Assembly (NCBI GenBank): GCA_965242985.1
Contig: OZ251520.1
Location: 860,492 to 924,491, forward strand
DNA from: an uncultured candidatus Porisulfidus sp.
GTDB lineage: Bacteria; Pseudomonadota; Gammaproteobacteria; Poriferisulfidales; Poriferisulfidaceae
DNA length: 64,000 bases
Direction: 5' to 3'
Shown: one piece after another, positions 7,531 through 42,008 of the stretch
How positions within the stretch are numbered: position 1 is the first letter of the stretch
Layout of the letters: each line of letters opens with the position of its first letter
Program-made: the position numbers and the translations under genes
Notes under the pieces: model-generated
Told to the model about the DNA's origin: nothing
What the model saw: the letters and a program-made list of their open reading frames with translations, nothing else
Databases searched by the model: none

Positions 7531-10500
7531 TGTACAACAGCGCCAGCGACGTTCCGGACCTGACGTTCGAGGCGCGCAACACCGACGACGACACGGTCGG
7601 CCTGGTGCTGTCGAAGACCTCGGTGATGACCAGCGAGAACACCGCGGACCAAACCGTGAACCGGGACACGTTCACGGTGAAGCTGGGGTCGCAGCCGACG
7701 GCGGACGTGACCGTCGCCCTCATGAGCAGCGACACGGGCGAGGCGACGGTGAGCCCGTCGAGCCTGACGTTCACCATGACGACCTGGGACGCCGCGCAGA
7801 CGGTGACGGTGACCGGCGTGGACGACGCTTTGACGGACACCCCGCAGAACTACACGATCACGCTGAATCCGGCGAGCACGGGCGATACCGCCTACAACGC
7901 CTTGATGAACGTGACGGTGTCGGGGACGAACGCGGACGACGAGGCGCCGACGGCGTCGCTGACGCTGTCGAGCAGCGCGATCGCGGAGAACGGCGGCACG
8001 GCGACGGTGTCGGCGTCGCTGGACAGCGCGTCGACGGCGGCGACCACGGTGACGGTGCAGGCGGCGGCGGGCCTGTACACGGTGGTCGGGGGGAACACGA
8101 TCACGATCGCGGCGAGCGCGACGACCAGCGCGGACCGGGTGACGATCCGGGCGGTGGACGACCGGATCGAGAACAATCCGGCGCGGACGGGGCAGGTGAC
8201 GGCGTCGGTGAGCAACCCTTCGGCGCTGGGGGTGTCGAGCGCCACGGCGACGGCGGCGCTGACGCTGACGGACGACGACATGGCGGGGCTGGCGCTGACG
8301 GGGCTGCAGGCGGCGGACCCGAAAGCGACGCTGGCGGAGAACGGGACGGCGGTGTTCCGGGTGGCGCTGGCGAGCGCGCCGACGGCGGACGTGACGGTGG
8401 CGGCGTCGAGCAGTCCTTCCAGCGCGTGCTTGGTGTCGAAGGCGGGCGACGCGGCGCCGTCGGCGTCGACGACGCTGACGTTCACGTCCGGGAACTGGAG
8501 CGCGGCGCAGGCGGTGACGCTGACCGGCGTGCGCGACAATCTGGCGGCCGGCGGACGGGACTGCGCGGTCACGCTGGCGACGGCGAGCGCCGGCGCGGGC
8601 GGCGATGCGGTGTACCACAGCAACACCGAGGTGCCGGACCAGTCGTTCATGGCGCGGGTCACCGAGGTCGACGCGGTGGGCCTGGCGCTGTCGAAGACGT
8701 CGGTGGCGACCAGCGAGGACGGGACGTCGGACTCGTTCACGGTGGCGCTGCGGACGATCCCGTCGGACGACGTGACGGTGGCGCTCGCGGTCACGGGCGC
8801 CGCGGACGAGGTGATGCTGAGCGCGTCGAGCCTGACGTTCACCGCGACGACCTGGAACGCCGCGCAGACGGTGACGGCGACGGGGCAGGACGACGACGAC
8901 CTGGACCGGGCGCAGAACTATCAGATCGGCTTGTCGACGACCAGCAACGACGGGGATTACAGCGGCCTGACGGCGACGGTGTCGGGGACGAACCAGGACA
9001 ACGAGGCGCCGACGGTGACGCTGGAGCTGTCGCCGGCGTCGGTGGCGGAGGGTGGAACGGCGACGGTGACGGCGAGCTTGGATCGGGCGGTGGAGACGGC
9101 CACGGTGATCACGGTGTCGGCGGCGGCGGGGCCGGGCGCGGCGGGGTCGTTCCGGCTGAGTTCGAACCGGACGCTGACGGTGCCGGCGAATTCGCGCGCC
9201 AGCGAGGGCGAGGTGACCATCGCCGCGGTGGACGACGCGGTCGACGCGCCGGACAAGACGGTGCGGGTGCGGGGCGAGGTCGGCGCGAACGACTTGGGGA
9301 CGCTGGATCCGGCGCCGGTGACGCTGACGATCCGAGGACGACGAGGCGGCGCCGGAGGTGTCGCTGGCGCCGGCGTCGGCGGAGATCTGGGAGAGCGGGG
9401 CGGGGAGCCGGACCGACGGTGTCGGCGCGGCTGAGCCATCCGTCGAGCGCGGAGACGCGGATCACGGTGCGGTCGCTGCCGGGGGTGTACCGGGTGGTGG
9501 GGCTCGCCCCGGTTTCGGCGTCGCGGACGAGCGGCGCGGGCCGGTCGGCCGCGCTTGGAGACGAGGCAGACGGAAGGGGAAGCGGTGATCGTGATTCCGG
9601 CGCTGCGGACGACCAGCGACGACCGGGTGATCATCGAGGCGTTGGACGTGGCCGGCGCGGGGGCGGATCAAGAGGTCGAGATCCGGGCCACGGCGATCAA
9701 CAGCCAGGGCGTGGCGGCGCGGGCGCTCACGGCGGCGCTGACGGTGCTGGACGACGAGACGGCGTCGGCGTCGCTGGTGCTGGCGCCGGCGCGGGTGTCG
9801 GAGGGCGGGACGGCGCGGGTGTCGGCGGAGCTGCGCCGGGCGGTGGGGGCGGCGGTGACCGTGACCATCTCGGCGGCGCCGGGAGAAAACGCCACGGCAG
9901 AGGATTTCAGTTTGGGTTCGGAGCGGGTGCTGACGATCCCGGCGGGGCAGACGATCCAGCACGGGTTCGGCGTCGATCGCGACGCGGGACGACGAGACGG
10001 ACGCGCCGGACCGGACGGTGGCGGTGTCGGCGACGGCGGAGTCGTCGGCGGCGACGCGGACGCCGCAGCCGGCGCATGCTGACGATCGCGGACGACGACG
10101 AGACGCCGCAGGCCGCGTTGATCTTGATGCCGGCGGTGATCGGGCAGCGCGAGCCGAATAACGAGTCGACGGTGACGGCGACGCTGGAGCGGCCGTCGAG
10201 CGAGGCGACGACGATCACGGTGTCGGCGACGGGGACCGGCTTCGAGCAGCGCGGGACGACGCTGACGGTGGCGGCGGGGGCGACGACGAGCGCGGGCACG
10301 GTGAGGCTGATTGCGGAAAACGCCGGGGATCAGGCGCCGGACCGGGAGGTGATCGTGTCGGGGCGGGCGGCGAACGCGCACGCGATCGTGCAGCCGGCGG
10401 ACGCGACGCTGACCATCCGCAGCGGCGCCGGCTCGGAAGTGACGGAAGTGCTGCTGCCGGAGGCGGCGCGGGCGATGGCGGACAGCCGGGCGAGCGCGGT

Positions 10501-11767
10501 GCGGCGGCGGCTGGAAAGCGCGGACGCGGCGGCGGCGTCGGAACTGCCGGCGCTGACGGAGCTGCTGGCGAAGCACGGCCCGTCGGTTCAGGACGACTCG
10601 CTGGACTGGAAGAAGACGCTGGCGGGATCGTCGTTCACGCTGCCGCTGAACGCGGCCGGCGGCGATGCCGGCGGCGGCGGCATCACCGTCTGGGGGAGCG
10701 GGGACTACCGCGACCTGGACGGCGAGGCGCGCGGCGTGAAGTGGGACGGCGACGTGGTCAGCGCGCATCTCGGTCTGGACCGGAAACTGGCGAACGGCCT
10801 GCGGGTCGGCCTGGCGGCGTCGTGGTCGGAGGCGAAGTTCGACTACGACCACCGCGGCCTGACGGGCGAGTGGGAGCTGGAGATGGGCAGCGCGCAGCCG
10901 TACCTGGGCTGGACCACGCCGGGCGGCTTGGAGCTGTGGGCGTCGGCGGGCGCGGGCAGCGGCGAACTGGAGGTGACGGACGGCGGCGCGCGGGACACTT
11001 CGGACGCGGACATGCGGCTGGCGGCGGCCGGGGCGCGGGGGCCGCTGTACGAGACGGCAAGCGGGCTGCGGGTGTCGCTGCGCGGCGAGGCGCTGTATTC
11101 GAGCTTCGAGGTGGACGGCAACGGCGCGCGCATCCCGGGTTACACGGCGGACGTGAGCCGGCTGCGGCTGGCGCTGGAGGCGCGGCGGGACCGCGCGCTG
11201 GCGTCGGGGGCGCGGCTGTCGCCGCGGTTCGAGCTGGGGCTGCGTCACGACGGCGGCGACGGCGAGACCGGCGCGGGAGTGGAGCTGGGCGGCGGCGCGG
11301 AGTACGCGTCGGGCCGGCTGTCGGCGTCGGGCGGGGCGCGGGCGCTGGTGGCGAATTCGGACTACGACGAGTGGGGCGCGGACTTGGCGCTGGCGTACGC
11401 GCCGGGCGCGGACGGGCGGGGCTTCTCGTTCCGGCTGGCGCCGTCGTGGGGCGCGGCGCAGAGCGGCGGGCAGAAATTGTGGGAGCAGGGCGCGCCGGGG
11501 TTGAACGGCGCGGCCGAGGAGCCCGATGCAAGCGCGCGCCTGGAGGCGGAGTTGGGCTACGGGCTGAAGTCGCCGTGGAGCCGCGGGCTGCTGACGCTGA
11601 CGCTGGGCGGCGAGGCGGGCGAGGACGTGGGCGCGGCCTGCCGCCTGAAGGGCGCGGTGGCGCTGGACGCGACGGCGACGCTGGGTCTGGAGCTGGAAGT
11701 GCGCGATCCGCCGTCGGGCGGCGCCGAGCGCAGCCTGATGCTGACCGGCGAACTGCGCTTCTAGGCC

Positions 11768-11800
11768 CGCGCCGCTGTTCAGTGGCGGCTTCATGCTTTT
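11768..11800 (+). terminator. Putative intrinsic terminator after autotransporter gene 1
   Basis: gccgc-tgttcagtg-gcggc hairpin followed by ttcatgcttttt. Confidence 0.4.
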
Positions 11801-21973: not shown

Positions 21974-24631
21974 ATGCGCGGAAGACACCGGACGGGGGCC
22001 GCGGCGGCGGGGTTCTGCGCCGGCCTGGCGCTGGCGGGCGGCGCGCCGGGCGCGGCCGGGACGGCCGCGGCGGCCGAGGCGGTGGAGGAGATCCGGGTCA
22101 CCGGCTCGCGCCGCGCGCACCGCGCCGGCGGCGACACGCTGGCGCCGCTCGACATCCTCACGGCCCGCGACTTCGCCGCGCAGGGCCGCCGCGAGACCAC
22201 CGATATGCTGCGCGCGCTGATCCCGTCGTACAACGTAAGCGCGCAGCCGATCAACTCCGCCGCCACCCTGGTGCGCCCGGCCAACCTGCGCGGGTTGTCG
22301 CCGGATCAGACCCTGGTGCTGGTCAACGGCAAGCGCCGGCACCGGGCGGCGGCGATCACGTTCTTCGGCAGCGGCCTCGCCAACGGCGCGCAGGGGCCGG
22401 ACGTGGGCGCGATCCCGGCGATCGCCCTCAAGCGGGTCGAGGTGCTGCGCGACGGCGCCTCGGCGCAGTACGGCTCGGACGCCATCGCCGGGGTGCTCAA
22501 CTTCGTGCTGAAGGACGCGCCCGCCGGCGGCGAGGCGGCGGCGGAATTCGGCCGGACCTACGCCGGCGACGGCGAGCAGCGCCGCCTGGCCGGCAACGTC
22601 GGCCTGCCGCTCGGCGACTCCGGCTTCCTCAACCTGAGCGGCGAATGGCAGGACCGCAGCCCGACCGTGCGCAGCGTGCAGCGCGCCGACGCGCAGGCGC
22701 TGATCGACGCCGGCAACGCGGCCGTGGAGCGGCCGTACGCGCAGGTCTGGGGGCAGCCGGACCTGGACGACGACTGGAAGGGCTTCGCCAACCTGGCCGC
22801 CGCGCTCGGCGGCGGCGCCGAGTTCTACGCCTTCGGCAACCGCTCCGAGCGCGCCACCGAGGGCGGCTTCTACTTCCGCAGCCCGGACGACCGCGACGGC
22901 GTGTTCTCGACCGCCGCGGAATTGGGGGGAGTGGCCGTGCCGGCGCGCCTGGTCGGCGACCGGGAGCCGGGCAATGCCGCCGCCTGTCCCGGCGACGTGG
23001 TCATCGCGGCGCGGCTGAGCCCGGCGCAGCGCCAGGCGCTGGCCGCCGCCGGCATCGACCCCGCGGCGCGCGAGGCGCGGCGCCGGCGGGAGGTCGCGGC
23101 CGCCGCCGACTGCTTCCTGTTCAACGAGCGCTTCCCGGGCGGCTTCCGGCCGAAGTTCGGCGGCGAACTGACCGACCAAGCCGCGGTCGCCGGGGTGCGC
23201 GGGGAGTTGCCGGGCGGGCTGCGCTACGACCTGAGCGCGTCGCGCGGCGAGCACGAGATCGAGTTCTTCATGCGCGACTCCATCAATCCCAGCCTCGGGC
23301 CGGATTCGCCGGGCTCCTTCCGGCTCGGCTCCTACGCCCAGACCGAGCGGGGCCTGAACCTCGACCTGGCGTACCCGCTCGCCATCGACGCGTTCGCCTC
23401 GCCGGTGAACGCGGCCTTCGGCCTGGAGTGGCGCGAGGCGGAGTTCCAAGTGCGCCAGGGCGAGCCGGATTCCTGGCGCGCCGGGCCCTACGCGGAGCAG
23501 GGCTTCGGCATCGGCGCCAACGGCTTCTCGGGCTTCGGCCCGGCGGTCGCCGGCCGCTGGGAGCGCGGCAGCCGCGCGCGCTACCTGGACCTCGAGGGCG
23601 ACGTCGCGCCGGAACTGACGCTGGGCGCCGCGCTGCGCTGGGAGGACTTCGACGGCTTCGGCACCGCCGCCACCTGGAAGCTGTCCGGCCTGTACCGGCT
23701 GCATGAGGCGCTGCGCCTGCGCCTGAGCCGGCACACGGGCTTCCGCGCGCCGACCGTCGGCCAGCAGCGGGTCACCGACATCACCACCGCCTTCGCCCGG
23801 CGCGACGACGGCGTCCTGGCGCTGGTGCAGCGCGGCACCGTGCAGCCCGGCACGCCGCTGGCGCGGGCGCTCGGCGCCCGCGCGCTGCGCCCGGAGAAGT
23901 CCGATTCGTTCACCGCCGGCGCGCTCCTGGAGCTGGGCGCGGCGGAAGTCACGCTCGACTACTTCTACATCGCGGTCGACGACCGGGTCACCCAGTCCCG
24001 CAGCTTCGACTTGGCGCGGGAGACCGGGCCGGGGCGGGCGTTCGCGGACCGCGCCGCGCTGGACGCGGCGCGCGCCGCCTCCGGCCTTGCGGACAACACG
24101 GACCTGGTCAGCGTGCGCTACTTCGTCAACGACTTCGACACCCGCACCCGCGGCGCGGACCTGACGCTCCGGGCGCCGCTGGCGCTGGCGGGCGGCGGCG
24201 ACACCGAACTGACGCTGGCGGCCAACTGGACCAAGACCCGGGTGGTCCGCCGCGACCCGGCCACGGTCTCCGCCAAGCGGGTGGCGCAGCTGGAGCGCAG
24301 CCTGCCCCGGGTCCGCGGCCACGCCGCGCTGCGGCACGACGCCGAGCGCTGGCGCGCGCTGGCGCGCGTCCACTACTACGGCAACGCGCAGGAACACCAC
24401 GTCGACAGCGCCGACCACCTGTTCAAGCACGGCGCCGAGGTGACCGTCGACGTGGAGCTGGGCTGGCGCCCGCGGCCGGGCCTGGAGCTGGCGCTCGGCG
24501 CGGAGAACCTGTTCGACAACCTGCCGGACCGGAATCCCTACGCCCGCAACTGGGGCTCCAAGTACGCCGAGAACGCGCCCTACGGCACCCGCGGCGGCTT
24601 CTACTACCTGCGCGCGCGGCACGAATTCTGA
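21974..24631 (+). CDS. TonB-dependent receptor (paralog 1 of 3)
   Basis: Signal peptide; plug-domain motifs IRVTGSR, LRGLSPDQTLVLVNGKR; ~800-aa beta-barrel ending with the terminal aromatic ...YYLRARHEF. Confidence 0.85.
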   Translation: MRGRHRTGAAAAGFCAGLALAGGAPGAAGTAAAAEAVEEIRVTGSRRAHRAGGDTLAPLDILTARDFAAQGRRETTDMLRALIPSYNVSAQPINSAATLVRPANLRGLSPDQTLVLVNGKRRHRAAAITFFGSGLANGAQGPDVGAIPAIALKRVEVLRDGASAQYGSDAIAGVLNFVLKDAPAGGEAAAEFGRTYAGDGEQRRLAGNVGLPLGDSGFLNLSGEWQDRSPTVRSVQRADAQALIDAGNAAVERPYAQVWGQPDLDDDWKGFANLAAALGGGAEFYAFGNRSERATEGGFYFRSPDDRDGVFSTAAELGGVAVPARLVGDREPGNAAACPGDVVIAARLSPAQRQALAAAGIDPAAREARRRREVAAAADCFLFNERFPGGFRPKFGGELTDQAAVAGVRGELPGGLRYDLSASRGEHEIEFFMRDSINPSLGPDSPGSFRLGSYAQTERGLNLDLAYPLAIDAFASPVNAAFGLEWREAEFQVRQGEPDSWRAGPYAEQGFGIGANGFSGFGPAVAGRWERGSRARYLDLEGDVAPELTLGAALRWEDFDGFGTAATWKLSGLYRLHEALRLRLSRHTGFRAPTVGQQRVTDITTAFARRDDGVLALVQRGTVQPGTPLARALGARALRPEKSDSFTAGALLELGAAEVTLDYFYIAVDDRVTQSRSFDLARETGPGRAFADRAALDAARAASGLADNTDLVSVRYFVNDFDTRTRGADLTLRAPLALAGGGDTELTLAANWTKTRVVRRDPATVSAKRVAQLERSLPRVRGHAALRHDAERWRALARVHYYGNAQEHHVDSADHLFKHGAEVTVDVELGWRPRPGLELALGAENLFDNLPDRNPYARNWGSKYAENAPYGTRGGFYYLRARHEF

Positions 24632-24726
24632 ATCTCCGGGGCGATGCCGGAACTTCCGGGATTCCCGCCCCGCGCGCGTTCCGGTGCTACAATGGCGCGC
24701 CGTTTTTTTGAGAGGATTGCGGGCAT

Positions 24727-27403
24727 GAACCGAGGGCATTCCACCATCGAGAAGCTCGGCCTGGCGGGGCTGATTCCCGCCTTGGCCATCGCCGTTTCCG
24801 GCGCGCCCGCGCCCGCGGCCGGGGCCGAGGCGGACGAAATCGAGGAGATCAAGGTCACCGGCTCGCGCCGGGCGCACCGCACCGGCGGCGACACGCTGGC
24901 GCCGCTCGACATCATCTCCGGCAGCGATTTCTCGCGCCAGGGGCGCGGCGAGACCACCGACATGCTGCGCACGCTGATCCCGTCGTACAACGTCAACGCG
25001 CAGCCGATCAGCGACGCCGCCACGCTGATCCGGCCGGCCAACCTGCGCGGGCTGTCGCCGGACCAGACGCTGGTGCTGGTCAACGGCAAGCGCCGGCACC
25101 GCGCCGCGGTCATCAGCTTCCTCGGCGGCGGCGTCTCCTCGGGCGCGCAGGGGCCCGACGTCAGCGCCATCCCGGCGATCGCCCTGAAGCAGGTCGAGGT
25201 GCTGCGCGACGGCGCCTCGGCGCAGTACGGCTCGGACGCCATCGCCGGCGTGATCAACTTCGTGCTGCGGGACGAGGCCGACGGCGGGGTGGTGGAGACC
25301 AAGTTCGGGCAGACCTACTCGGGCGACGGCGAGCACCGGCAGCTGTCCGCCAACCTCGGCCTGCCGCTCGGCGGCGCCGGCTTCCTCAACCTGAGCGGCG
25401 ACTGGAAGGAGCGCGACCCGACCGTGCGCAGCGTCCAGCGCGCCGACGCGCGGGCGCTGCTCGCCGCCGGCAACGCCGACGTGGAGCAGCCCTACGCGCA
25501 GATCTGGGGCCAGCCGGACCTGAACGACGACTGGAAGGGCTTCGTCAACATGGCCGCCGCGCTCAGCGACGAGGCCGAGTTCTACGCCTTCGGCAACTAT
25601 TCCGAGCGGGAGACGGAGGGCGGCTTCTTCTTCCGCAACCCCGACAGCCGCGGCGGCGTCTTCTCGACCACCGCGGCGCTGGGCGGGGAGACGGGGCTGC
25701 CGGCGCGCCTGGTCGGCACCCGGCCGGGCAGCGGTTCCGCCTGTCCCGACGACGTGGTCATCGCGGCGCGGCTGAGCCCGGCGCAGCGCCAGGCGCTGGC
25801 CGCCGCCGGCATCGACCCCGCGGCGCACGAGGCGCAGCGCCGGCGCGAAATCGCGGCGGACGCCGGCTGCTTCCTGTTCAACGAGCGCTTCCCGGGCGGC
25901 TTCCGGCCGAAGTTCGGCGGCGACCTGACCGACGAGGCGCTGACGGCCGGCCTGCGCGGCGAGTTCGCCGGCGGGCTGAGCTACGACGTCAGCGTGTCCT
26001 ACGGCGAGAACGAGGCCGAGTTCTTCATCCGCGACACGATCAACGCCAGCCTCGGGCTGGCCACGCCGACCTCGTTCCGGCTCGGCTCCTACACGCAGAC
26101 CGAGGAGGGCCTCAACCTCGACTTCGTCTACCCGCTGACGATCGACGCGTTCGCCTCGCCGCTGAACGTGGCCGCCGGCCTGGAGTGGCGCAACGAGGAG
26201 TTCGAGGTGCGGCAGGGCGAGCCGGATTCCTGGCGCGCCGGGGACTACGCGCAGCAGGGCTTCGGCGTCGGCGCCAACGGCTTCTCCGGCTTCGGCCCGT
26301 CCAACGCCGGCAAGTGGGACCGCTCGAGCGAATCGCGCTACCTCGACCTCGAGGCGGACGTCCGCGAGGACCTGACGCTGGGCGCCGCGCTGCGCTGGGA
26401 GGACTTCGACGACTTCGGCACCACCACCACCTGGAAGCTGTCCGGCCTGTACCGGGTGCACGACCAGCTGCGGATGCGCGCCGCCTGGCACACCGGCTTC
26501 CGGGCGCCGACCGTCGGCCAGCAGAACATCACCAACCTGACCACCGCGTTCCAGGGCACGGCCCTGGTGCAGCGCGGCACCATCCGGCCGACCACGCCGC
26601 TGGCGCAGGCGCTGGGCGGCACGCCGCTGGAGCCGGAGAAATCCGACTCGTTCACGATCGGCGCGATCATGGACATCGCCGCGGCGGAGGTGACGCTGGA
26701 CTACTTCTACATCGCGGTGGACGACCGCATCCTGCAGACCCAGTCGTTCGTGCTGAGAGATTTGGTCGCCGGCAGCGGCGAGTGCGGAGGGAATGATCAA
26801 CCGGCCTGCGTCTGGGCCAATCAGGCGGCGCTGCAGGCGGCGCGGGAGGCGTCCGGCTTCGCCGCGAACCTGGATCTGAGCAACGTCCGCTTCTTCACCA
26901 ACGACTTCGACACCCGCACCCGCGGCCTCGACCTGGTGGCCACGATGCCGCTCGAGTTGCTGGACAGCGGCGATTCCGAGCTGACGGTGGCGGCCAACTG
27001 GACCAAGACCCGGGTCGTGCAGGCCGATCCCGATCTGGTCGACCAAAAGCGCATCGACCTGCTCGAGAAGAGCCTGCCGCGGTTCAAGGGCAACGCCACG
27101 CTGACGCACGACGCCGAGGACTGGCGGGCGCTGGTGCGCGCCAACTACTACGGCAACGCGTGGGAATACCACGTCGACTCGAACGACCTGCTGGTCAAGT
27201 ACGGCGCCGAGGTCACCTGGGATCTCGAGTTCGGCTACCGCCCGCTGCCGGAGCTGGAGCTGGTGCTGGGCGCCGACAACGTGTTCGACAACCGGCCGGA
27301 CGAGAATCCTTACGCCTTGATCGTCGGCTCGCGCTATCCCGAGAGCGCGGCCATGGGCAGTCAGGGCGGCTTCTACTACATGAAAGCGAGTTACGAATTC
27401 TGA
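24727..27403 (+). CDS. TonB-dependent receptor (paralog 2 of 3)
   Basis: ~85% aa identity with paralog 1 in the plug region; ends ...YYMKASYEF. Start set at MNRGH because the upstream ATG (24692) overlaps a TACAAT -10 box. Confidence 0.8.
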
Positions 27404-27417
27404 GGGGCGGGGCAGGC

Positions 27418-30162
27418 ATGGGGCCGGGCCGGCCGCCGCCGCGCCGCGCGCGCGGCGGCCTGTTGCTGGCGCTGACGGCCGCGGCCGCGGGCGGGCCGCC
27501 GGCGGCCGCGGCGGAGGCGGGCGCCGAAGCGCCGGAGGAGATCCGGGTGACCGGCTCGCGCCGGGCGGTGCGCTCCGCGGGCGACGCGCTGGCGCCGCTC
27601 GACATCATCTCCGGGGCCGACTTCTCGCGCCAGGGCGAGGGCGACACCAACAGCATGCTGCGCGCGCTGGTGCCCTCGTACAACGTCGGCGAGCACCCGA
27701 TCGACGACGGCGCCACGCTGGTGCGCCCGGCCAACCTGCGCGGCCTCGCGCCCGATCAGATGCTGGTGCTGGTCAACGGCAAGCGCCGGCACCGGGCGGC
27801 GGTGATCACGTTCTTCGGCGCCGGCGTCGCCGACGGCGCGCAGGGGCCGGACGTCAGCGCCATCCCGGCGATCGCCCTGAAGCAGGTCGAGGTGCTGCGC
27901 GACGGCGCCGCGGCGCAGTACGGCTCGGACGCCATCGCCGGGGTGCTCAACTTCGTGCTGAAGGACGCGCCCGCCGGCGGCGCGGTGGAGACCAAGCTCG
28001 GCCAGACCTATGCCGGCGACGGCGAGCAGCGGCAGCTGTCGGCCAACCTCGGCCTGCCGCTCGGCGACGGCGGCTTCCTCAACCTGAGCGGCGACTGGAA
28101 GGAGGTCGAGCCGACGGTGCGCAGCGTGCAGACCGACGGGGCGCGCAAGCTGCTCGCGGCGGGCCGCGACGGCGTCCGGCAGCCGTACGCGCAAATCTGG
28201 GGGCAGCCGGACATCCGCGACGACTGGAAGGGCTTCCTCAACCTGGCGGCGCCGCTGAGCGAACGCGCCGAGTTCTACGCGTTCGGCAACTACGCCGAAC
28301 GGGAGACGGAGGGCGGCTTCTACTTCCGCAACCCGGACGACCGCCCCGGCGCCTACCGCTGGGACGCGCCGACCGGCCGCGGCGGGGAGACGGCGAAGGC
28401 GCGCATCGTCGTCGACCTGACCGACGACGGCCGGGCCGACTGCCCCGCGGGCTCCGGCGTCAACGGCGCGGCGCCGGTCTACATCGCGGCCGAGCTGACC
28501 CCGGAGCAGGCGGCCCACCTGTTCCCCGGCCCGGGCGGCGGCGCGGCGGCGCTGGAGCGGGCGCGGGCTGCCGAGCGGGCGCAGCTGGCCCGGATCACGG
28601 GCCCGGGCAACGAGAACTGCTACATCCTCAACGAGCTGCTGCCGGACGGCTTCACGCCGCAGTTCGGCGGCGCGCTGAGCGACTACGCGCTGGCGGGCGG
28701 CGTCCGCGGCGAGCTCGAGGGCGGCCTGGCCTACGACCTCAGCGTGGCCAAGGGGCAGAACGCGGTGGACTTCTTCATCCGCGACACCGTCAGCACCAGC
28801 CTCGGCCCGGACACGCCGACCGCCTTCGAGCTCGGCTCCTACATCCAAGAGGAGGTCGACGTCAACCTCGACCTGAGCTACCCGCTGGAGGTGGCGGCGT
28901 TCGCCTCGCCGCTCAACGTCGCCGGCGGCTTCGAGTGGCGCGAGGAGCGCTTCGAGGTGCGCGCGGGCGAGCCCGATTCCTGGCGCGCCGACCGCTTCGT
29001 CGCCGCGCAGGGCTTAGGCGTCGGGGCCAACGGCTTCTCCGGCTTCGGCCCCGAGATCGCGGGCCGCTGGGACCGCTGGAACATCGCCCTGTACCTGGAC
29101 TTGGAGGCCGACGTCAGCGAGCGGCTGACGCTGGGCGGCGCGCTGCGCTGGGAGGATTTCAGCGACTTCGGCACCACCGCGAACTGGAAGCTGTCGGGCC
29201 TGTACCGGCTGACCGGCAACCTGCGCGTGCGCGGCTCCTACAACACCGGCTTCCGCGCGCCGACCGTCGGGCAGCAGCGGATCGCCAGCATCGTCACCGC
29301 TTTCGGCACCGGCGCCGGCGGGCAGACCTCGCTGACGCAGCGCGCCACCGTGCAGCCGACCTCGCCCCTGGCGGCGCCGCTGGGCGGGCGGGCCCTGGAG
29401 CCCGAGGAATCGGCGGCCTACGCGTTCGGCGTCGGTGCCGACCTGGGGCCGCTCGAATTGACGGCGGACTTCTTCGCCATCGAGGTGGAGGACCGCATCG
29501 CCCAGTCGCAGTCGTTCACGCTGAGCGACTTCGTCGCCGGCGGCCGCTGCGAGGCGGACGCCTCCTGCCTGTGGGCCGACCGCGCCGCGCTGCAGGCGGC
29601 CCGGGAGGCGTCCGGCTTCGGCCGCAACGCGGACCTGCAGCGGATCCGCTACTACCTGAACGCGTTCGACACCCGCACCCGGGGCCTCGACGTGGTGGCC
29701 TCCCTGCCGCTGGCGCTGCGCGCCGCCGGCGAGTCGGAGCTGGCGTTTGCCGGCAACTGGACCAAGACCGAGGTGGTGCGCCACGACCCCGGCGCCGTGA
29801 GCCGCAAGCGCATCGCGCAGCTGGAGAAGGGCCTGCCCCGGGTGCGCTTCAACGCCGCGCTGACGCACGCGGAGGGCGACTGGCGCGCGCTGCTGCGGGC
29901 CAACTACTACGGCCCCGTGCATCTGTTCCACGCCGACGACGCGAACAAGCCCCTGCAGTCCGGCGCCGAAGTCACCTGGGACGTGGAGTTCGGCTACCGC
30001 CCGGCGGCGGACCTGGAGCTGGTGTTCGGCGCCGACAACGTGTTCGACAACTACCCGGACCGGAATCCCTACGCCGGCGAGCACGGCTCCAAGTACCCGG
30101 AATACGGGCCCATGGGCACGGCCGGGGGCTTCTACTACCTGAAGGCGCGCTATGAATTCTAG
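27418..30162 (+). CDS. TonB-dependent receptor (paralog 3 of 3)
   Basis: MGPGRPPPRRARGGLLLALTAAAAG... signal, same plug motifs, ends ...YYLKARYEF. Confidence 0.8.
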   Translation: MGPGRPPPRRARGGLLLALTAAAAGGPPAAAAEAGAEAPEEIRVTGSRRAVRSAGDALAPLDIISGADFSRQGEGDTNSMLRALVPSYNVGEHPIDDGATLVRPANLRGLAPDQMLVLVNGKRRHRAAVITFFGAGVADGAQGPDVSAIPAIALKQVEVLRDGAAAQYGSDAIAGVLNFVLKDAPAGGAVETKLGQTYAGDGEQRQLSANLGLPLGDGGFLNLSGDWKEVEPTVRSVQTDGARKLLAAGRDGVRQPYAQIWGQPDIRDDWKGFLNLAAPLSERAEFYAFGNYAERETEGGFYFRNPDDRPGAYRWDAPTGRGGETAKARIVVDLTDDGRADCPAGSGVNGAAPVYIAAELTPEQAAHLFPGPGGGAAALERARAAERAQLARITGPGNENCYILNELLPDGFTPQFGGALSDYALAGGVRGELEGGLAYDLSVAKGQNAVDFFIRDTVSTSLGPDTPTAFELGSYIQEEVDVNLDLSYPLEVAAFASPLNVAGGFEWREERFEVRAGEPDSWRADRFVAAQGLGVGANGFSGFGPEIAGRWDRWNIALYLDLEADVSERLTLGGALRWEDFSDFGTTANWKLSGLYRLTGNLRVRGSYNTGFRAPTVGQQRIASIVTAFGTGAGGQTSLTQRATVQPTSPLAAPLGGRALEPEESAAYAFGVGADLGPLELTADFFAIEVEDRIAQSQSFTLSDFVAGGRCEADASCLWADRAALQAAREASGFGRNADLQRIRYYLNAFDTRTRGLDVVASLPLALRAAGESELAFAGNWTKTEVVRHDPGAVSRKRIAQLEKGLPRVRFNAALTHAEGDWRALLRANYYGPVHLFHADDANKPLQSGAEVTWDVEFGYRPAADLELVFGADNVFDNYPDRNPYAGEHGSKYPEYGPMGTAGGFYYLKARYEF

Positions 30163-30231: not shown

Positions 30232-30454
30232 GGTATAATCCCGCCCGCTTTCGGACTGCAACCGCTTCAGTCCGCGAAGCGAACTGCGCCGAACTGTCTC
30301 ACTGACATGGAATATCCCGCCGCATCGGCCCTGAATCGCGCCTGCGCCGCGCGTGGTCCTATCGCGCGCAGCCCTAATACGGGGGGGGGGGTCTAAAAGC
30401 CTTTCCGCGCGCCGGACGTCCGGCGCTCCGGCCCGGCCGTCTCGGCCGGAACCG
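30232..30454 (+). promoter_or_regulatory. Leader/promoter module copy C (TATAAT 30234-30239, GC hairpin, G11 tract 30381-30391) upstream of the intact autotransporter
   Basis: Shares tataatcccgcccgctttc, ctgaatcgcg-hairpin, c(c/t)(g/t)aatac-Gn and tccgcgcgccgg blocks with copies A and B. Confidence 0.6.
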
Positions 30455-33400
30455 ATGACCGGCGCGCGTTGCGCGCGCGGGCTGGCGGCGGCGTTGCTGG
30501 CCGCGGCGCTGCTGCCGGCGTCGCCGGCGCAGGCGCAGCACCTCGCCTATCAGGTGACCCTGAGCAAGAGCGTGATCACCGAAGGCGAGTCGGTCACGGT
30601 GGGCCTGAGCTGCACCTCGTATTGCGGCAACAACTTGATAACAACCGGCGGCGCCCAGACGGAGACGACTACCAAGGCGGATATCGCGATCAGTCCCACC
30701 ACTTACAGCAACGTTACGCTGTCCAGCAACGTGCGGCTGACCATGAACTCGAACAATTCGAGCAACCCTTGGGCGGGCACGGTGACGATTTCGACCACGG
30801 TCGACACGGCGGACACCGGGCACAGGACGGTGACGGTATCGGGGACCCAAGACCGCACTGATCCAAACAACGCGTGGGCCGGGGTGGGTACCAGCGCCAT
30901 CACCTCGGCCACGCTGACGATTCTCGACGCCCAGGCGCCGCAGGTGACGGTGTCGCTGTCGCCGGCGACGATCAACGAGAGTGGCGGAACCATAACGACG
31001 GTGGTGCAGGCGACGGTGCCGACGGGCTCCGAGCCGACCACGGCTCTGGCGGTGACGCTGTCGGCGGCGCCGGTGAGTCCGGCGACGTCGGCGGATTTCA
31101 CGACGAGCTGGTCGGGAGCCACGACGACGTTGACGATTCCGGCGAACGGCACCACCAGCGGGCTCGCGTTGATCACGGCGGTGAACAACAACCTGGACGG
31201 CCCGGAGACCAAGCAGGTGACGGTGAGGGGAGCGGTGGCGACGACCGTCGACTACCGGTCCGGCTCCGCGACGCTGACGATCAACGACGACGACATGACG
31301 GACCTGACGGTGGACCACAGCGGCGGTTCGACCACGGTGGCGGAGGGTTCGACGGCGACGGACGATTTCGAGGTGAGCCTGGCGAGCCAGCCGCGGTCGG
31401 TGGTGCAGGTGGCGGTGTCGGTGGTGAATGACTCGGACGGCACCCGCGAGTGCGAGGCGTCGGTGGACGACGGCGCGAACTACATCGCGTCCGGCAGCAC
31501 GGGGACGCTGACGTTCGTGCCGACGGCCGGCGAAATTTCGGGAGCCCAGACGGCCCTGTGGAGCACGGGGCAGAGGGTGAGGGTGCGGAGCGTGGACGAT
31601 GCCGCGGACGACGACGACCAGACATGCACGGTGCGGCTGAACCCGGCCAGCGTGCCGGCCTCGGGCGATACCAGATACCACAATTTGGCCGATGTCGACG
31701 TGTCGGTGACCGTCACCGACAACGACGTGCAGCCGACGCTGGCGCTGACGCCGCCCGCGATCGACGAGAGCGGGATGAACAACCGGGCGACGGTGACGGC
31801 GACGCTGGCGGATCCCGCGGCGTCGCGGGTGACGCTCACGGTGTCGGCGGCGCCGGTGAGTCCGGCGGTGGCGGGCGATTACAGCCTGAGCGGGAGCACG
31901 CTGACGATCGCGTCGGGCGCGACGACCAGCACGGGGACGGTGACGATCACGGCGGTGGACAACGCCGTGGACGCGGCGAACAAGACGGTGACGGTGTCGG
32001 CGACGTCGTCGGGCGGGAACACGGTGGCGCCGGCGGACGCGACGCTGACGATCCGGGACGACGACGGGCCGGGCCTGGACTTGTCGCCGACCGCGCTGTC
32101 GGTGGCCGAGCCCGGGGAGGAGGGCTCGTTCGCGGTGAATCTGGCGTCGCAGCCGACGGCGGCCGTGACGGTGACGGCGTCGCGGCCGGCGGCGGACGGC
32201 ACGGAATGCGAAGTGAAGAGCGGCGCGGGCGCGTACGGCGCCTCGACGACGTTGACGTTCACGGCCTCCACTCCGGCCACCCTGTGGAGCGCGCCGCAAA
32301 CGGTGATGGTGCGGGCCATTGACGACCCCAGCGCTGATGCCGATCAGCCGTGCGATATCACGCTGTCGGTCAGCAGCACGGACACGAACTACAACACGCT
32401 GGGGGATGAGACGGTGTCGGTGACCGTGGTGGACGACGACACGGCGGGATTGACGCTGTCGAAGACCGAAGTGTCGACCAGCGAGGACGTCGCCGACGCG
32501 GCCGCGAACGCGGACGATTTCACGGTGCGCCTGGGGACGCTGCCATCGGCGGTCGTGACGATCGCGATCAGCAGCAGCGACACGGGCGAGGCGGCGGTTT
32601 CTCCAGCGAGCCTGAGGTTCGGGACGGCGGCGGACAACAGCGACCCCGCCAACCCGGTGTTCCTGTGGAGCGATCCGCGGACGGTGACGGTGACGGGCGT
32701 GGACGACAACGACCCGGACGGCTCGCGGGACTACACGATCACGCTGAATCCGAGCAGCACGGGCGACAGCGACTACGACGGCTTGGATGACGTGCTGGTG
32801 TCGGGCACGAACGAGGACGACGACGCAGTGACGGTGACGCTGTCGGTGTCGGCGGCGGACGGGCGGCTCGCGGAGGGCGAATCGGCGGCGGTGACGGCGC
32901 GCCTCGGCCGTTCGGTGGGGGCGGTGACGACGATCCGGGTGTCGGCGGCGGCGGGGACGGGCGCGTCGGCGGCGCACTTCCGGCTGAGCGAGAACCGGAC
33001 GCTGACGGTGGCGGCGGGGTCGACGGCGAGCACGGGGACGGTGACCATCACCGCGGTGGACGACGACGTGGACGGCCCGGAGACCCGGCAGGTGACGGTG
33101 TCGGGGTCGGCGAGCGGCGGCCAGAGGGCGCTGGATCCGGACTCCTTGACGCTGACGATCGCGGACGACGACGCGGCGCCGCGGGCGTCGCTGATCTTGA
33201 CGCCAGCGGCGATCGACGAGAGCGCGCCGGACAACGAGGCGCGGGTGACGGCGGCGCTGAGCCATCCCTCGAGCATGGCGACGACGGTGGCGGTGTCGGC
33301 CGCGGCCGGGGCGACGGTGGGCGCAGACAACGTCCTCTCGATCCCCGCGGGGGCGACGGCGAGCGCGGATGCGGTGACGCTGACGGCGGTGGACGACGAG

Positions 33401-34837
33401 GAGCAGACGCCGGACCGGGAGGTGGCGGTGTCGGGGCGGGCGCGGAACGCGCACGGCGTCGAGCAGCCGGCCGCGGTGACGCTGACCATCCGCGATGACG
33501 ACGGCGCGGAGGCGGTGACGGCGGTGCTGCTGCCGGAGGCGGCGCGGGCGATGGCGGACAGCCGGGCGGGCGCGGTGCGGCGGCGGCTGGAGAGCGCGGA
33601 CGCGGCGGAGGCGTCGGCGCCGCCGGCGCTGATGGCATTGCTGACGGAGCACGGCCCGTCGCTGCAGAAAGACGAACTGGACTGGAAGACGGCGCTGGCG
33701 GGGTCGTCGTTCGCGCTGCCGCTGAACGCGGCCGGCGAGAGCGGCGGCGGCGTGGCCGTGTGGGGAAGCGGCGACTACGCGAACTTGGACGGCGAGGCGC
33801 GCGGGGTGTCGTGGGACGGCGACGTCGTGAGCGCGCATCTCGGCTTGGACCGGAAACTGGCGAACGGTCTGCGCGTCGGCTTGGCGGCGTCGTGGTCGGA
33901 GGCGAAGTTCGACTACCGGCACGAGGGCCGCGAAGGCGAGTGGGAGCTGGAGATGACCAGCGCGCAGCCGTACCTGGGCTGGACGACGCCGGGCGGCTTG
34001 GAGTTGTGGGCCTCGGCGGGCGCGGGCAGCGGCGACCTGGAGATCGCCGCCGGCGGAACGGCGCGGGAGAAATCGGACGCGGACATGTGGCTGGCGGCGG
34101 CCGGGGCGCGGGGGCCGCTGCACGAGACGGAAAGCGGCTTGCAGGTGTCGCTGCGCGGCGAGGCGCTGTATTCGAGTTTCGAGGTGGACGGCAACGACGG
34201 GCGCATCCAGGCCTACACGGCGGACGCCTCAAGGCTGCGGCTGGCGCTGGAGGCGCGGCGGGACCGCGTGCTGGCGTCGGGGGCGCGGCTTTCGCCGCGG
34301 TTCGAGCTGGGGCTGCGGCACGACGGCGGCGACGGCGAGACCGGCGCGGGGGTGGAGCTGGGCGGCGGCGCGGAGTACGCGTCGGGCCGGCTGACGGCAT
34401 CGGGCGGGGCGCGGGTTCTGGCGGCGAATTCGGACTACGACGAGTGGGGCGCGGACTTGGCGCTGGCGTACGCGCCGGGCGCGGACGGGCGGGGCTTCTC
34501 GTTCCGGCTGTCGCCGTCGTGGGGTACTGCGCAGAGCGGCGCGCAAAAACTGTGGGAACAGGGCGCGCCGGGGCTGAGCGGCACTGCGGACGAGGCCGAC
34601 CTCGGCGGCCGCCTGGAGGCGGAGCTGGGCTACGGACTGAAGTCGCCGTGGAGCCGCGGGCTGCTGAGGCTGACGCTGGGCGGCGAAGCGGGCGAGGACG
34701 CGGGCGCGGCCTGCCGCCTGAAAGGCGCGGTGGCGCTGGACGCGACGGCCAGCCTGGGGCTGGAGCTGGAGGTGCGCGACCCGCCGTCGGGCGGCGCCGA
34801 GCGCAGCCTGATGGCGACCGGCGAACTGCGCTTCTAG
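30455..34837 (+). CDS. Giant Calx-beta-repeat autotransporter (intact)
   Basis: Signal peptide MTGARCARGLAAALLAAALLPASPAQA. About 12 Calx-beta-like ~100-aa repeats (…TLTI(R/A)DDD…). C-terminal ~420-aa autotransporter beta-domain (WGSGDY..., terminal F). C-terminal 500 aa ~85% identical to the gene-1 tail. Confidence 0.8.
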   Translation: MTGARCARGLAAALLAAALLPASPAQAQHLAYQVTLSKSVITEGESVTVGLSCTSYCGNNLITTGGAQTETTTKADIAISPTTYSNVTLSSNVRLTMNSNNSSNPWAGTVTISTTVDTADTGHRTVTVSGTQDRTDPNNAWAGVGTSAITSATLTILDAQAPQVTVSLSPATINESGGTITTVVQATVPTGSEPTTALAVTLSAAPVSPATSADFTTSWSGATTTLTIPANGTTSGLALITAVNNNLDGPETKQVTVRGAVATTVDYRSGSATLTINDDDMTDLTVDHSGGSTTVAEGSTATDDFEVSLASQPRSVVQVAVSVVNDSDGTRECEASVDDGANYIASGSTGTLTFVPTAGEISGAQTALWSTGQRVRVRSVDDAADDDDQTCTVRLNPASVPASGDTRYHNLADVDVSVTVTDNDVQPTLALTPPAIDESGMNNRATVTATLADPAASRVTLTVSAAPVSPAVAGDYSLSGSTLTIASGATTSTGTVTITAVDNAVDAANKTVTVSATSSGGNTVAPADATLTIRDDDGPGLDLSPTALSVAEPGEEGSFAVNLASQPTAAVTVTASRPAADGTECEVKSGAGAYGASTTLTFTASTPATLWSAPQTVMVRAIDDPSADADQPCDITLSVSSTDTNYNTLGDETVSVTVVDDDTAGLTLSKTEVSTSEDVADAAANADDFTVRLGTLPSAVVTIAISSSDTGEAAVSPASLRFGTAADNSDPANPVFLWSDPRTVTVTGVDDNDPDGSRDYTITLNPSSTGDSDYDGLDDVLVSGTNEDDDAVTVTLSVSAADGRLAEGESAAVTARLGRSVGAVTTIRVSAAAGTGASAAHFRLSENRTLTVAAGSTASTGTVTITAVDDDVDGPETRQVTVSGSASGGQRALDPDSLTLTIADDDAAPRASLILTPAAIDESAPDNEARVTAALSHPSSMATTVAVSAAAGATVGADNVLSIPAGATASADAVTLTAVDDEEQTPDREVAVSGRARNAHGVEQPAAVTLTIRDDDGAEAVTAVLLPEAARAMADSRAGAVRRRLESADAAEASAPPALMALLTEHGPSLQKDELDWKTALAGSSFALPLNAAGESGGGVAVWGSGDYANLDGEARGVSWDGDVVSAHLGLDRKLANGLRVGLAASWSEAKFDYRHEGREGEWELEMTSAQPYLGWTTPGGLELWASAGAGSGDLEIAAGGTAREKSDADMWLAAAGARGPLHETESGLQVSLRGEALYSSFEVDGNDGRIQAYTADASRLRLALEARRDRVLASGARLSPRFELGLRHDGGDGETGAGVELGGGAEYASGRLTASGGARVLAANSDYDEWGADLALAYAPGADGRGFSFRLSPSWGTAQSGAQKLWEQGAPGLSGTADEADLGGRLEAELGYGLKSPWSRGLLRLTLGGEAGEDAGAACRLKGAVALDATASLGLELEVRDPPSGGAERSLMATGELRF

Positions 34838-37528: not shown

Positions 37529-38143
37529 CTAGCGGCGCCCGCCTTCCCGGATCCGCGCCGGCAGGGAAAGGCACTGCCGGGCGCGGTCTTTCCCGATCAG
37601 GGCGAGCGTTTTCTCGTGGTATTCCTCGGGAACTTTCATGCGTCCCAGGCGCAGGGCGTTGTAGACGGCTTGCGCTTGTCCCCCGCGGCCGAGGGCGGTT
37701 TCCGCCTGCCGGCAGGTCAGGATGTCCATCGTGCTCGCCGTCGGCAGGCGCGGGAAGCGTTCCCTGCAGATCCTCAGGCCCTTGCTTTCGTCGATCACCG
37801 CCGCCCCGCCGCGTTCCAGCGCGCAAGCGATGACGGCGGCTTCGCCGTCGTCTAAGGATCTTTCGGTCAGGTCGTTGAAGTGCCGCAGGCCGATTTCTCT
37901 CAAGGCCGCGACTGCGAGCATTCCCCGTTTCGTCCAAGCGGGAAAATCGCTGGCGCGCACTGCGCCCTTTTCTTGTCCCACCTCGAATTCCTGCAGCACC
38001 TCTTCGACGATCATGAGGATGCCCGGCAACGCCGCCAGAAGTTCCTCGAAGCTTCCCGTCGCGCAGAGATTGATGAGGACGCTGGTGTCGACGACCAGCG
38101 GCCCCGCGAAGTCAGGCAGCGAGTTCCAGCGCGTCATCCGCAT
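37529..38143 (-). CDS. PIN-domain protein (putative toxin/RNase)
   Basis: LVVDTSVLINL N-terminal PIN motif. 32-nt overlap with the upstream XRE/ImmA gene. Confidence 0.6.
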   Translation of the reverse strand: MRMTRWNSLPDFAGPLVVDTSVLINLCATGSFEELLAALPGILMIVEEVLQEFEVGQEKGAVRASDFPAWTKRGMLAVAALREIGLRHFNDLTERSLDDGEAAVIACALERGGAAVIDESKGLRICRERFPRLPTASTMDILTCRQAETALGRGGQAQAVYNALRLGRMKVPEEYHEKTLALIGKDRARQCLSLPARIREGGRR

Positions 38144-39287: not shown

Positions 39288-39489
39288 GCGCGGTCCCTTG
39301 CAGTTGATGTCAGGATAGATGCAGGAAGAATCATAACATGTTGGAAAAACGCGGGTATCAGGGAAACCGCCGCAGTACGCCGAGTGTTCCGCATCCTCGC
39401 GGCGGCGCGTCATGTCGGAGTCCTGCGGAGTCTGATCCCGCGGCAGCTGGTATGCTGGAATCCCATCCTCGGAGACCACGCGGAAGAGC

Positions 39490-39984: not shown

Positions 39985-40017
39985 TCCCCGGCGGCGGCGT
40001 CCCAGTCCGTTCGCTGG

Positions 40018-41247: not shown

Positions 41248-41269
41248 AATAACTGCCCGGATTATCGCT

Positions 41270-41989: not shown

Positions 41990-42008
41990 AATGCGTGCTC
42001 TTGGAGTC

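Follow-up and report, generated by a model that had tools for sequence, protein, structure and literature searches.

Type Va autotransporters such as AIDA-I, pertactin and Ag43 are characterised by an N-terminal signal peptide, a large repetitive passenger, a C-terminal β-domain (PF03797) and a terminal aromatic residue, and the passengers of the well-studied members are usually β-helices. Frameshifted or phase-variable autotransporter genes are known from Bordetella, Neisseria, Haemophilus and Rickettsia (sca genes). Two patterns occur in these genes: one or two lesions, typically in tracts of a homopolymer or a short repeat, and scattered decay marked by stop codons and raised dN/dS.

Here, a stretch of 64,000 nucleotides (the window) from contig OZ251520.1 of an uncultured candidatus Porisulfidus sp. 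was analysed. It contains an autotransporter gene of about 7 kb on the + strand (gene 1; start at 4722 or 4746, stop at 11764). The locus resembles the cases described in pathogens in that a surface-protein gene is frameshifted while a paralog is intact. It differs from them by having five +1 insertions outside repeats within 745 bp and no other decay. The locus probably represents one gene of about 2340 codons for a classical (type Va) autotransporter, with five spurious 1-base insertions in two adjacent repeat units (9332-10077).

Domain organisation of gene 1 and its paralogs

The N-terminus of gene 1, judged by eye only, consists of a basic stretch, a hydrophobic core (ALLALPLLFAAGPAGA) and then HT. 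At the other end, the 3' part (10079-11764, + strand, frame 2) encodes the last repeat, a linker and the autotransporter β-domain. It matched PF03797 with 36.3 bits (cutoff 26) at about 10688-11302, contained no internal frameshift or stop, and ended with ...SLMLTGELRF directly followed by the stop codon. An intact paralog in the window (30353-34837, + strand; 1494 aa) matched PF03797 with 44.6 bits and likewise ended in an aromatic residue (...LMATGELRF); the two repeat units corresponding to 9333-10078 of gene 1 are missing from this paralog. At least three paralogs of gene 1 are carried by the genome. The third, P0003, is located on the same contig; its 3' end is a frameshifted reading of the last β-strand, which appears to have been lost by a change of 1 nt.

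The intact relative P0121 comprises putative signal peptide, passenger, PF03797 and terminal aromatic residue in a single chain of 2333 aa. Passenger and barrel thus share one polypeptide in this 93% identical relative, and they also do so in the window sequence minus five bases. As deposited, by contrast, gene 1 departs from the type Va organisation in that passenger and barrel lie in different frames, separated by five frame changes and a stop codon at 9434.

A further difference from the well-studied type Va proteins is found in the passenger, which is built of Ig-like β-sandwich units of about 105-115 aa resembling Calx-beta or LapA repeats. The first-pass annotation had named these units Calx-beta, a designation with some support at the level of the fold only. 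An AlphaFold2 model of one unit was a β-sandwich (pLDDT 91), and its best whole-domain matches in the PDB (Foldseek) were to CBD1 of CALX/NCX1 (3ead, 2dpk; TM 0.60-0.67, E only about 1e-3 to 2e-3), with many other Ig-like folds scoring similarly. All Pfam matches to these families were weak and below the gathering score: (i) the best score for PF03160 (Calx-beta), from the paralog, was 18.7 bits where the cutoff is 27; (ii) the LapA-type family PF20579 reached 20-22 bits against 27; (iii) a Pfam profile search of the frameshifted segment gave no match to PF03160. The two families PF03160 and PF03797 are combined in many database homologs, and this architecture is not new.

Frame changes in the passenger region

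Three-frame translation and a homology-free GC3 frame plot agreed in locating five changes of the coding frame (coordinate mod 3) between 9332 and 10077, all of them +1. A cluster of at least four or five frameshifts had been reported for this region in the first-pass annotation, and the cluster is real. The deposited sequence holds ORFs at 4653-9434, 9358-9588, 9555-10082 and 6956-11764; the ORFs quoted earlier and the frame-0 stop at 9434 are among these features. A frame-1 stretch at 9955-10075 (SSTGSASIATRDDETDAPDRTVAVSATAESS...) had been left out of the list of frames, and the frame-0 ORF, while ending at 9434, continues for 25 residues past the quoted ...RGRRGGAG. Homology to P0121 could be followed through every frame.

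The features of the region, all on the + strand, are arranged as follows. The 5' part (4722-9332, frame 0) encodes a long putative signal peptide and most of the passenger with its Ig-like (Calx-beta-like) repeats. Gene calling in the source placed the start of P0134 (1570 aa) at ATG 4722; this call continues out of frame until the stop codon at 9434. ATG 4746 is the same start as in P0121. The first extra base (9332-9335; ATC-CGAG-GAC, GAG or CGG in relatives) changes frame 0 to 1; at most this one of the five could be read as a single C doubled. It is followed by a frame-1 passenger piece (9334-9414; EDDEAAPEVSLAPASAEIWESGAGSRT) that was recognised by translation and in the GC3 plot. The second extra base (9415-9418; GACG, GAG or ACG in relatives) changes frame 1 to 2 and precedes a frame-2 piece (9419-9558; VSARLSHPSSAETRITVRSLPGVYRVVG...RSAALG). 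At the third (9559-9560; GG-A-G ACG, GGG ACG or GGG GCG in relatives), where three window-specific substitutions lie no more than 5 nt away, frame 2 changes to 0. The subsequent frame-0 piece (9561-9953; TRQTEGEAVIVIP...AALTVLDDETASASLVL...RVLTIPAGQT) is the one for which the source's gene caller proposed P0135 (165 aa, 9585-10082). The fourth extra base (9954; ACG-A-TCC) changes frame 0 to 1 and leads into the frame-1 stretch at 9955-10075 (SSTGSASIATRDDETDAPDRTVAVSATAESSAATRTPQPA). The fifth (10076-10077; CA-T-G, CAG in L006 and GCG in L001) changes frame 1 to 2 and makes ATG 10076, which was taken as the start of P0001 by the source's gene caller.

Frame 0 meets its stop codon at 9432-9434, and deletion of the five bases resulted in a stop-free full-length ORF (the corrected sequence). 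In a search of about 15 billion proteins, the gene fragments P0134, P0135 and P0001 came from a single contig. Frame compensation was considered and rejected: three +1 steps regain frame 0 at 9561, yet the reading would have to pass the stop codon at 9432-9434, and all five steps together (+5) still put the barrel in a different frame.

Five points placed uniformly in the 7019-nt CDS would span 745 nt or less with P = 5.8e-4. At the density of the segment, 9.1 further events were expected in the downstream 1.7 kb and none was seen (P = 1e-4). All five events are 1-nt insertions, none of them within a run of three or more identical bases or a short tandem repeat, and the five sites share neither a motif nor a simple-sequence repeat. 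Window-specific substitutions amounted to 14 in 732 columns of the segment (1.9%) compared to 12 in 533 (2.3%) and 25 in 622 (4.0%) in the flanks. The dN/dS ratio was 0.62 in the segment, 0.59 and 0.60 in the flanking passenger DNA, and 0.19 in the barrel when compared with L006. On the branch leading to the window, the ratio of indels to substitutions was 5:14 in the segment as opposed to 0:90 elsewhere (Fisher P = 1e-4).

The scattered lesions, raised dN/dS and excess of lineage-specific substitutions that mark a neutrally decaying pseudogene were not found in gene 1. Gradual decay of the gene is contradicted, given that there is no excess of substitutions, that dN/dS is similar to the flanks, that no stop codon is left in the corrected sequence, that the β-barrel and about 50 other genes are clean, and that the spectrum comprises only +1 events outside homopolymers. 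The tract could also have been imported from a decayed copy, but this was rejected because no excess of window-specific substitutions was seen. Composition or predicted DNA structure was rejected as a cause, since the segment matches the clean barrel in GC content, GC skew and G-run density and its DNA folding gave a z-score of -0.64.

Relatives and sibling contigs

Gene 1 was compared with two close relatives from long-read metagenomes, L001 and L006, the latter being an intact gene (2333 aa) with 93% nucleotide identity. Both are shorter than the window by a single base at every one of the five sites; L006 keeps the frame at all of them and L001 at four. The five insertions are the only indels of a length not divisible by three in the 7.0-kb CDS relative to L001 and L006, and none of them is present in any relative. 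Segment 9332-10077 is collinear unit for unit with both genes, from which it differs only at individual bases and by a pair of small in-frame indels, and L001 and L006 differ from each other at each of the five sites. Across the segment, which is intermediate between the two, the window sequence turns from L001-like to L006-like. Long mosaic tracts were observed upstream of the segment in the window compared with the relatives; they show that real recombination also yields such allele switches. A runs test of allele sharing was uninformative, since plain three-way divergence also gives random alternation.

A scan of a genome collection gave no match with the barrel and at most 61% identity with the neighbouring TldD. 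In the JGI metagenomes, neither a protein scan nor a conserved 42-mer found a match. When the corrected segment was used in a protein search, the only matches had 38-46% identity because close relatives sit in clusters whose representatives are without this region.

The frame steps of the sibling contigs were also exclusively +1, with 12 of 12 in L002 (1x coverage), 13 of 13 in L004 (3.2x) and one of one in L001. Including the window, 31 of 31 frame steps are +1 and all are situated in passenger DNA; other genes on the L001, L002 and L004 contigs are intact. The frameshift of L001 itself results from a change of GGG to GGGG, and the frame of L003 is broken by a run of 13 G. Several insertions in L002 occur in perfectly matching context and resemble read-level errors more closely than the outcome of allele merging. 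L005 and L087, with about 70% identity, were too divergent for calibrating the error type.

L001, L002 and L006 originate from the same sample, and the contig of one relative (ERZ26050812:ctg28279_13x_c) is listed as 'ENA+NCBI'. The relatives belong to the ENA analysis ERZ26050812, and the contig of the window is probably of the same project. The contig names of the relatives look like metaMDBG output. On account of these names, the contig of the window would have been built by such a pipeline; its reads may be heterogeneous at the segment. In metaMDBG, each read is assigned to one contig, strains are filtered by abundance, and 500-nt windows are polished with a SPOA partial-order consensus (PMC11392814).

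Origin of the insertions

The five insertions are likely to be a mixed-allele consensus artefact of long-read metagenome assembly. The passenger stretch would vary among co-occurring strains, and reads of two slightly different alleles, each in frame, may have been piled into shared polishing windows. A difference of the alleles at neighbouring bases would be encoded by the partial-order alignment as an insertion plus a deletion, and at equal allele weights the heaviest-path consensus would run the longer way via both optional nodes. The longer route would therefore add an extra base and never omit one. Insertions only, located at adjacent-base differences between alleles, are what was found: five of five sites are variable and five of five are insertions.

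Gene-fragmenting indel errors and racon/SPOA-type consensus over collapsed strains are treated in three papers (PMC12007338, PMC11392814, PMC8302730). Gene 1 resembles the long-read indel errors in that one gene is split into several ORFs (P0134, P0135 and P0001) and that the split is confined to one assembly, with no counterpart in close relatives. With racon/SPOA-type consensus it shares the restriction to insertions, as an equal-weight partial-order consensus yields them. The usual long-read errors, however, occur genome-wide and favour homopolymers, whereas those of gene 1 are packed in 745 bp of a strain-variable gene, outside homopolymers.

Allele merging was simulated with our own re-implementation of partial-order alignment and heaviest-bundle consensus rather than the original software, run with racon scoring on the alleles L001 and L006. 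A 1:1 merge gave 14-15 single-base insertions and no deletion in 9300-10100. Elsewhere in the gene the number was 0-6, with 1-2 per 500 nt in the barrel. The output equalled the window exactly at sites 1 and 2 (two of five), and it also contained an extra base in the codon affected by site 5, with another about 5 nt from site 4; the three other sites would need alleles outside those observed. A 2:1 mix of L001 and L006 gave no insertions, and scoring with match 5, mismatch -4 and gap -8, presumably the SPOA default, gave only 1-2. The simulated effect thus requires racon-like scoring and alleles of almost equal weight. The predicted insertions outnumber those of the window about threefold, and at the remaining predicted positions the window sequence shows no insertion.

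Other observations also weigh against the artefact. The window is flawless over its remaining 63 kb, so that the cause must be very local; the earlier statement that every other gene is clean held wherever it was checked, in about 50 genes. Further, the frameshifts of L001, L003 and P0003 could mean that the family is truly being inactivated in nature. The first-pass annotation had left the choice between decay of one of two paralogs and mis-assembly of a repetitive region. A cause on the assembly side is the better supported, but neither repeat collapse nor gradual decay fits.

If the insertions are an artefact of consensus, the organism carries an undamaged gene and the significance is mainly cautionary. 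The three database 'proteins' (1570, 165 and 562 aa) would, in that case, be pieces of one autotransporter of about 2340 aa. Runs of +1 insertions outside homopolymers and limited to strain-variable genes may be the fingerprint of an error class in long-read metagenomes, which could be used to flag false pseudogenes among surface-protein genes.

It is rather unlikely that gene 1 is a genuine pseudogene of very recent origin, with the insertions present in the DNA of the organism, the autotransporter dead in the strain, and too little time elapsed for further lesions. The deposited sequence does read this way and the remaining window is high-quality consensus; loss of surface proteins is common, and the family is disrupted elsewhere, as seen in the last β-strand of P0003, the +1 of L001 and the 13-G tract of L003. 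Real insertions would make gene 1 an ordinary, freshly inactivated adhesin-like gene. Hits after the first one are neutral, however, and should scatter, in conflict with the downstream region, where none of the 9.1 expected events was seen. Five indels to 14 substitutions far exceed neutral decay, with neither the substitution rate nor dN/dS raised, and none of the five insertions is common to any relative. Bacterial mutation spectra are biased to deletions and simple repeats, and five 1-nt insertions out of five, all outside homopolymers, are unlike them.

Repeat-driven collapse or a mis-join of similar units or paralogs, by which a scrambled stretch would be left, is very improbable. The passenger consists of repeated units in a genome with at least three paralogs, and the switch from L001-like to L006-like sequence across the segment is as expected of a chimeric join, but real recombination can produce such switches too, as in the upstream mosaic tracts, and no unit is lost, gained or reordered relative to L001 and L006. 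The description of the region as highly repetitive did not stand up at the DNA level: the best non-self match in the window reached 72% across 153 nt, exact matches were no longer than 18 nt, and no tandem array was detected (TRF). An error in the consensus at the level of single bases is favoured over collapse because the segment is collinear, nothing is missing or duplicated, and its DNA is non-repetitive. The short repeat CTGACGATC is found close to three of the insertion sites; short exact repeats of this kind were considered as assembly-graph nodes and rejected, 9-10 nt being too short to matter.

We give little credence to a biological mechanism acting on the passenger, such as phase variation, programmed +1 frameshifting or insertion-biased local hypermutation. 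The uniform direction of the 31 frame steps in passenger DNA of four contigs is in its favour, as is the long poly-G tract of L003, which is of a type used in contingency loci. The five sites of gene 1, however, have no homopolymer or short tandem repeat that would mark a contingency locus. A conserved shift site for programmed frameshifting was not found either, and with L006 in frame at five sites and L001 at four there is nothing conserved to decode. Frame 0 stops at 9432-9434, composition and predicted DNA structure are those of the clean barrel, and allele merging alone gives an insertion-only pattern. That the insertions are real, owing to passenger-restricted insertion-biased mutation in an uncultured high-GC gammaproteobacterial lineage or to a cell that tolerates single extra bases in these genes, is likewise highly unlikely, but is kept as a reading because the frame steps of four independent contigs, 31 out of 31, are all +1 and all in the passenger.

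Reading frame of autotransporter gene 1

Gene 1 (plus strand, start codon at 4722 or 4746, stop at 11764) encodes a type Va autotransporter with a passenger built of Ig-like units, each about 105–115 aa long. Its C-terminal piece scored 36.3 bits against the Pfam autotransporter beta-domain (cutoff 26) and terminates in GELRF. A second, intact copy at 30353-34837 of the window (plus strand) shares both features. An AlphaFold2 model of one passenger unit (pLDDT 91) yielded a beta-sandwich with the Calx-beta domains of CALX and NCX1 as best whole-domain structure matches (TM 0.60–0.67, E about 2e-3); scores of the Pfam Calx-beta and LapA repeats against the passenger units were all below threshold. 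As many database homologs pair these domains with PF03797, the domain architecture of gene 1 was already known. Residues 772–936 of the intact paralog aligned to 8853-9332 and residues 934–1107 to 10079-10597. The 745-bp segment in between (approximately 9332-10077) represents two repeat units beyond those of the paralog.

Spurious long ORFs occur everywhere in the window because of its G+C content of 73.8%, and the coding frame was therefore followed by two independent methods. In a three-frame translation of 9000-10400, repeat-unit sequence shifted from frame 0 to 1, 2, 0, 1 and 2. A plot of third-position G+C, which is homology-free, placed frame changes at about 9330, 9420, 9520-9560, 9950 and 10070. 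All five steps are +1. Gene 1 is read in a single frame from the start codon to 9332 and again from 10079 to the stop codon. Frame tracking and the alignment of relatives thus confirmed the frameshift cluster reported in the first-pass annotation, which now comprises exactly five single-base insertions. The statement that the other genes are clean also held: all those checked (Lnt, MsrA, TldD, PmbA, PurN, PurM, PgsA, three TonB-dependent receptors, a cell-wall/division cluster and others) were full length.

Searching proteins with the barrel piece of gene 1 returned P0001 (562 aa), the gene call of the source itself, on a 1,877,398-bp contig deposited at NCBI and ENA, as well as close relatives from long-read metagenomes. 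Contig L001, which carries P0002 (ENA ERZ26050812 ctg28143_10x_l), aligned to 6792-11772 at 91% identity. Contig L006 (ctg25126_4x_l, same sample) encodes P0121, an uninterrupted protein of 2333 aa from the 90% cluster of P0001; its gene was 93.4% identical to 4625-11769. In a three-way alignment, each of the five frame changes coincided with one single base that the window has in excess of both relatives: site 1 at 9332-9335 (ATC-CGAG; GAG/CGG in relatives), site 2 at 9415-9418 (GACG; GAG/ACG), site 3 at 9559-9560 (GGAG-ACG; GGG-ACG/GGG-GCG), site 4 at 9954 (ACG-A-TCC in the window) and site 5 at 10076-10077 (CATG; CAG/GCG). At none of the sites does the inserted base lie within a run of at least three identical bases; at most one of them, site 1, might be taken for the doubling of a single C. 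The five insertions are the only frame-disrupting indels across the 7.0-kb CDS (all others, of 42, 27, 6, 3, 3 and 3 nt, are multiples of three), and their deletion in silico gave a stop-free, full-length ORF. L001 is in frame at four of the five sites and, at a distance of ten bases from site 4, has an extra G of its own (GGG to GGGG).

The 42-nt in-frame insertion relative to L006 (4851-4892) lies in a long signal-peptide region (AAVPARSTPARALP). It overlaps a tRNA-Gly call at 4820-4890 that was made by ARAGORN, not by Rfam; this call is probably a false positive.

Gene decay, repeat collapse and biological frameshifting as possible alternatives

Substitutions were polarised with the sequences of the window, L001 and L006. 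In the segment, the window branch had acquired 14 substitutions in 732 columns (1.9%; 2.3% and 4.0% in the two flanks), fewer than the 27 and 33 changes on the L001 and L006 branches. Between window and L006, dN/dS was 0.62 for the segment, close to the passenger on either side (0.59 and 0.60), with the barrel at 0.19. The ratio of indels to substitutions was 5:14 in the segment versus 0:90 elsewhere (Fisher P = 1e-4), and the probability of five uniform events falling within at most 745 of 7019 nt was 6e-4. The event density of the segment predicts nine further events for the downstream 1.7 kb, where none was seen (P = 1e-4). Because of these figures, the non-homopolymer contexts and the intact state of the other genes, slow neutral decay does not fit; the annotation had offered genuine decay of one paralog as one option. 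If real, the lesions would be very recent and strangely local; such a very recent inactivation of gene 1 we consider unlikely.

The second option, collapse in a highly repetitive region, was contradicted at the DNA level. The best non-self match of the segment in the window was 72% over 153 nt, exact matches did not exceed 18 nt, and Tandem Repeats Finder reported nothing for the segment. This low repetitiveness and the collinearity of the segment with both L001 and L006 speak against collapse or reordering here, and we give repeat collapse very little credence. A biological frameshifting or hypermutation mechanism is likewise highly improbable; no unusual DNA structure was predicted in the segment, which equals the clean barrel in G+C, GC skew and G-run density. 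For the same reason composition was rejected as the cause of the restriction to the passenger.

Probable consensus errors in a strain-variable passenger

The five insertions probably arose as a consensus artefact where a long-read metagenome assembly covers a strain-variable stretch. Among about 15 billion proteins, the gene calls covering pieces of gene 1 (P0134, 1570 aa; P0135, 165 aa; P0001) were on one contig only, and in that collection no independent assembly repeated the frameshifts. A more distant relative, P0010, is encoded on ERZ26050812:ctg28279_13x_c, a circular 1.83-Mb contig listed as 'ENA+NCBI' and derived from the same sample as L001, L002 and L006. The contig of the window probably stems from the same project, whose contig names resemble metaMDBG output. 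In metaMDBG, abundance serves to filter strain variants, every read goes to its one best contig, and contigs are polished in 500-nt windows, each receiving an SPOA partial-order-alignment consensus of read fragments (PMC11392814).

The same pattern was found in other contigs. The passengers of autotransporter homologs on L002 (1x coverage, positions 1-2540) and L004 (3.2x coverage, another sample, positions 1-3300) contain 12 and 13 +1 frame steps, respectively, with intact barrels and neighbouring genes. Seven of the 12 steps in L002 were mapped as single-base insertions against the intact paralog of the window, mostly doublings of the neighbouring base and several in perfectly matching context. 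Including the window (five) and L001 (one), 31 of 31 frame steps were +1. What sets the passenger apart from the barrel is its variability between strains. Judged from sequence comparison, the passenger appears to be a recombining mosaic; the segment, itself intermediate between both relatives, lies where the resemblance of the window shifts from L001 to L006.

Allele merging was simulated with a partial-order aligner and heaviest-bundle consensus rule, in our own re-implementation rather than the original software, using the real in-frame L001 and L006 alleles as input. When merged 1:1 with racon-type scoring (3, -5, -4), they produced 14–15 single-base insertions and no deletions in 9300-10100, versus 0–6 insertions elsewhere in gene 1 and 1–2 per 500 nt in the barrel despite about 9% divergence. 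The consensus reproduced the window exactly at site 1 (GCTGACGATCCGAGGACGACGAGGC) and site 2 (CCGGACCGACGGTGTCGGCG). One extra base each was also placed in the site 5 codon and roughly 5 nt away from site 4. Merging at 2:1 gave no such errors, and a higher gap penalty gave few insertions. For alleles that differ at adjacent bases (GAG, CGG), two gaps would score better than two mismatches, and at tied weights the path via both optional nodes would win, giving CGAG. Allele merging explains the direction and location of the errors and two exact sequences, not everything: three of the five sites would need alleles that were not observed, and the simulation predicted more insertions than are present. 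The L002 insertions in perfectly matching context look more like single-read errors surviving low depth. On both accounts the consensus, rather than the organism, would carry the fault.

Other observations

Homology of gene 1 to L001 and L006 (91–93% identity) ends about 120 nt upstream of the start codon and 5 nt past the stop, the flanking genes are unrelated, and long tracts within the gene switch between L001-like and L006-like. Alternating tracts and unrelated flanks suggest that strains or paralogs have exchanged sequence by recombination or gene conversion. Small-gene arrays encoding the NHase_alpha domain (nitrile-hydratase-like leader peptide) adjoin the homologs on L001 (180-587, 7943-8341) and L002 (4851-8103); none flanks gene 1 in the window. 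On L003, another metagenome scaffold, a 13-G run (9899-9911) disrupts the frame of the homolog within a repeat unit that is also frameshifted in gene 1; the run may be either a tract for phase variation or an artefactual poly-G. A third paralog on the contig outside the window, P0003 (978 aa), ends in '...LELAVRDPKRARPSAA' and not in '...RDPxxGAAERSLMATGELRF'. As this tail is the normal end in a shifted frame, a 1-nt change near the 3' end appears to delete the last beta-strand, making P0003 the second frameshifted family member in this assembly.

A low-G+C island (37600-42600; down to 40% in a 74% genome) adjoins the RNase P RNA gene (42029-42366) and is probably acquired DNA. It contains an HTH and ImmA/IrrE-type peptidase gene (38112-39491, minus strand) and ORFs without family match (39358-40323, 40228-41247). 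Of three tandem TonB-dependent receptor genes (21974-30162; 885, 919 and about 920 aa), all of which encode complete Plug and barrel domains, the first two share a frame and are 12 nt apart. The best match of TldD among species-representative genomes was only 61% identical (Gammaproteobacteria MAGs, Steroidobacteraceae, Chromatiaceae), so that collection lacks a closely related sequenced representative of the source lineage. Methanofuran/H4MPT-type genes are represented in the window by 4-HFC-P synthase (1571-2347).
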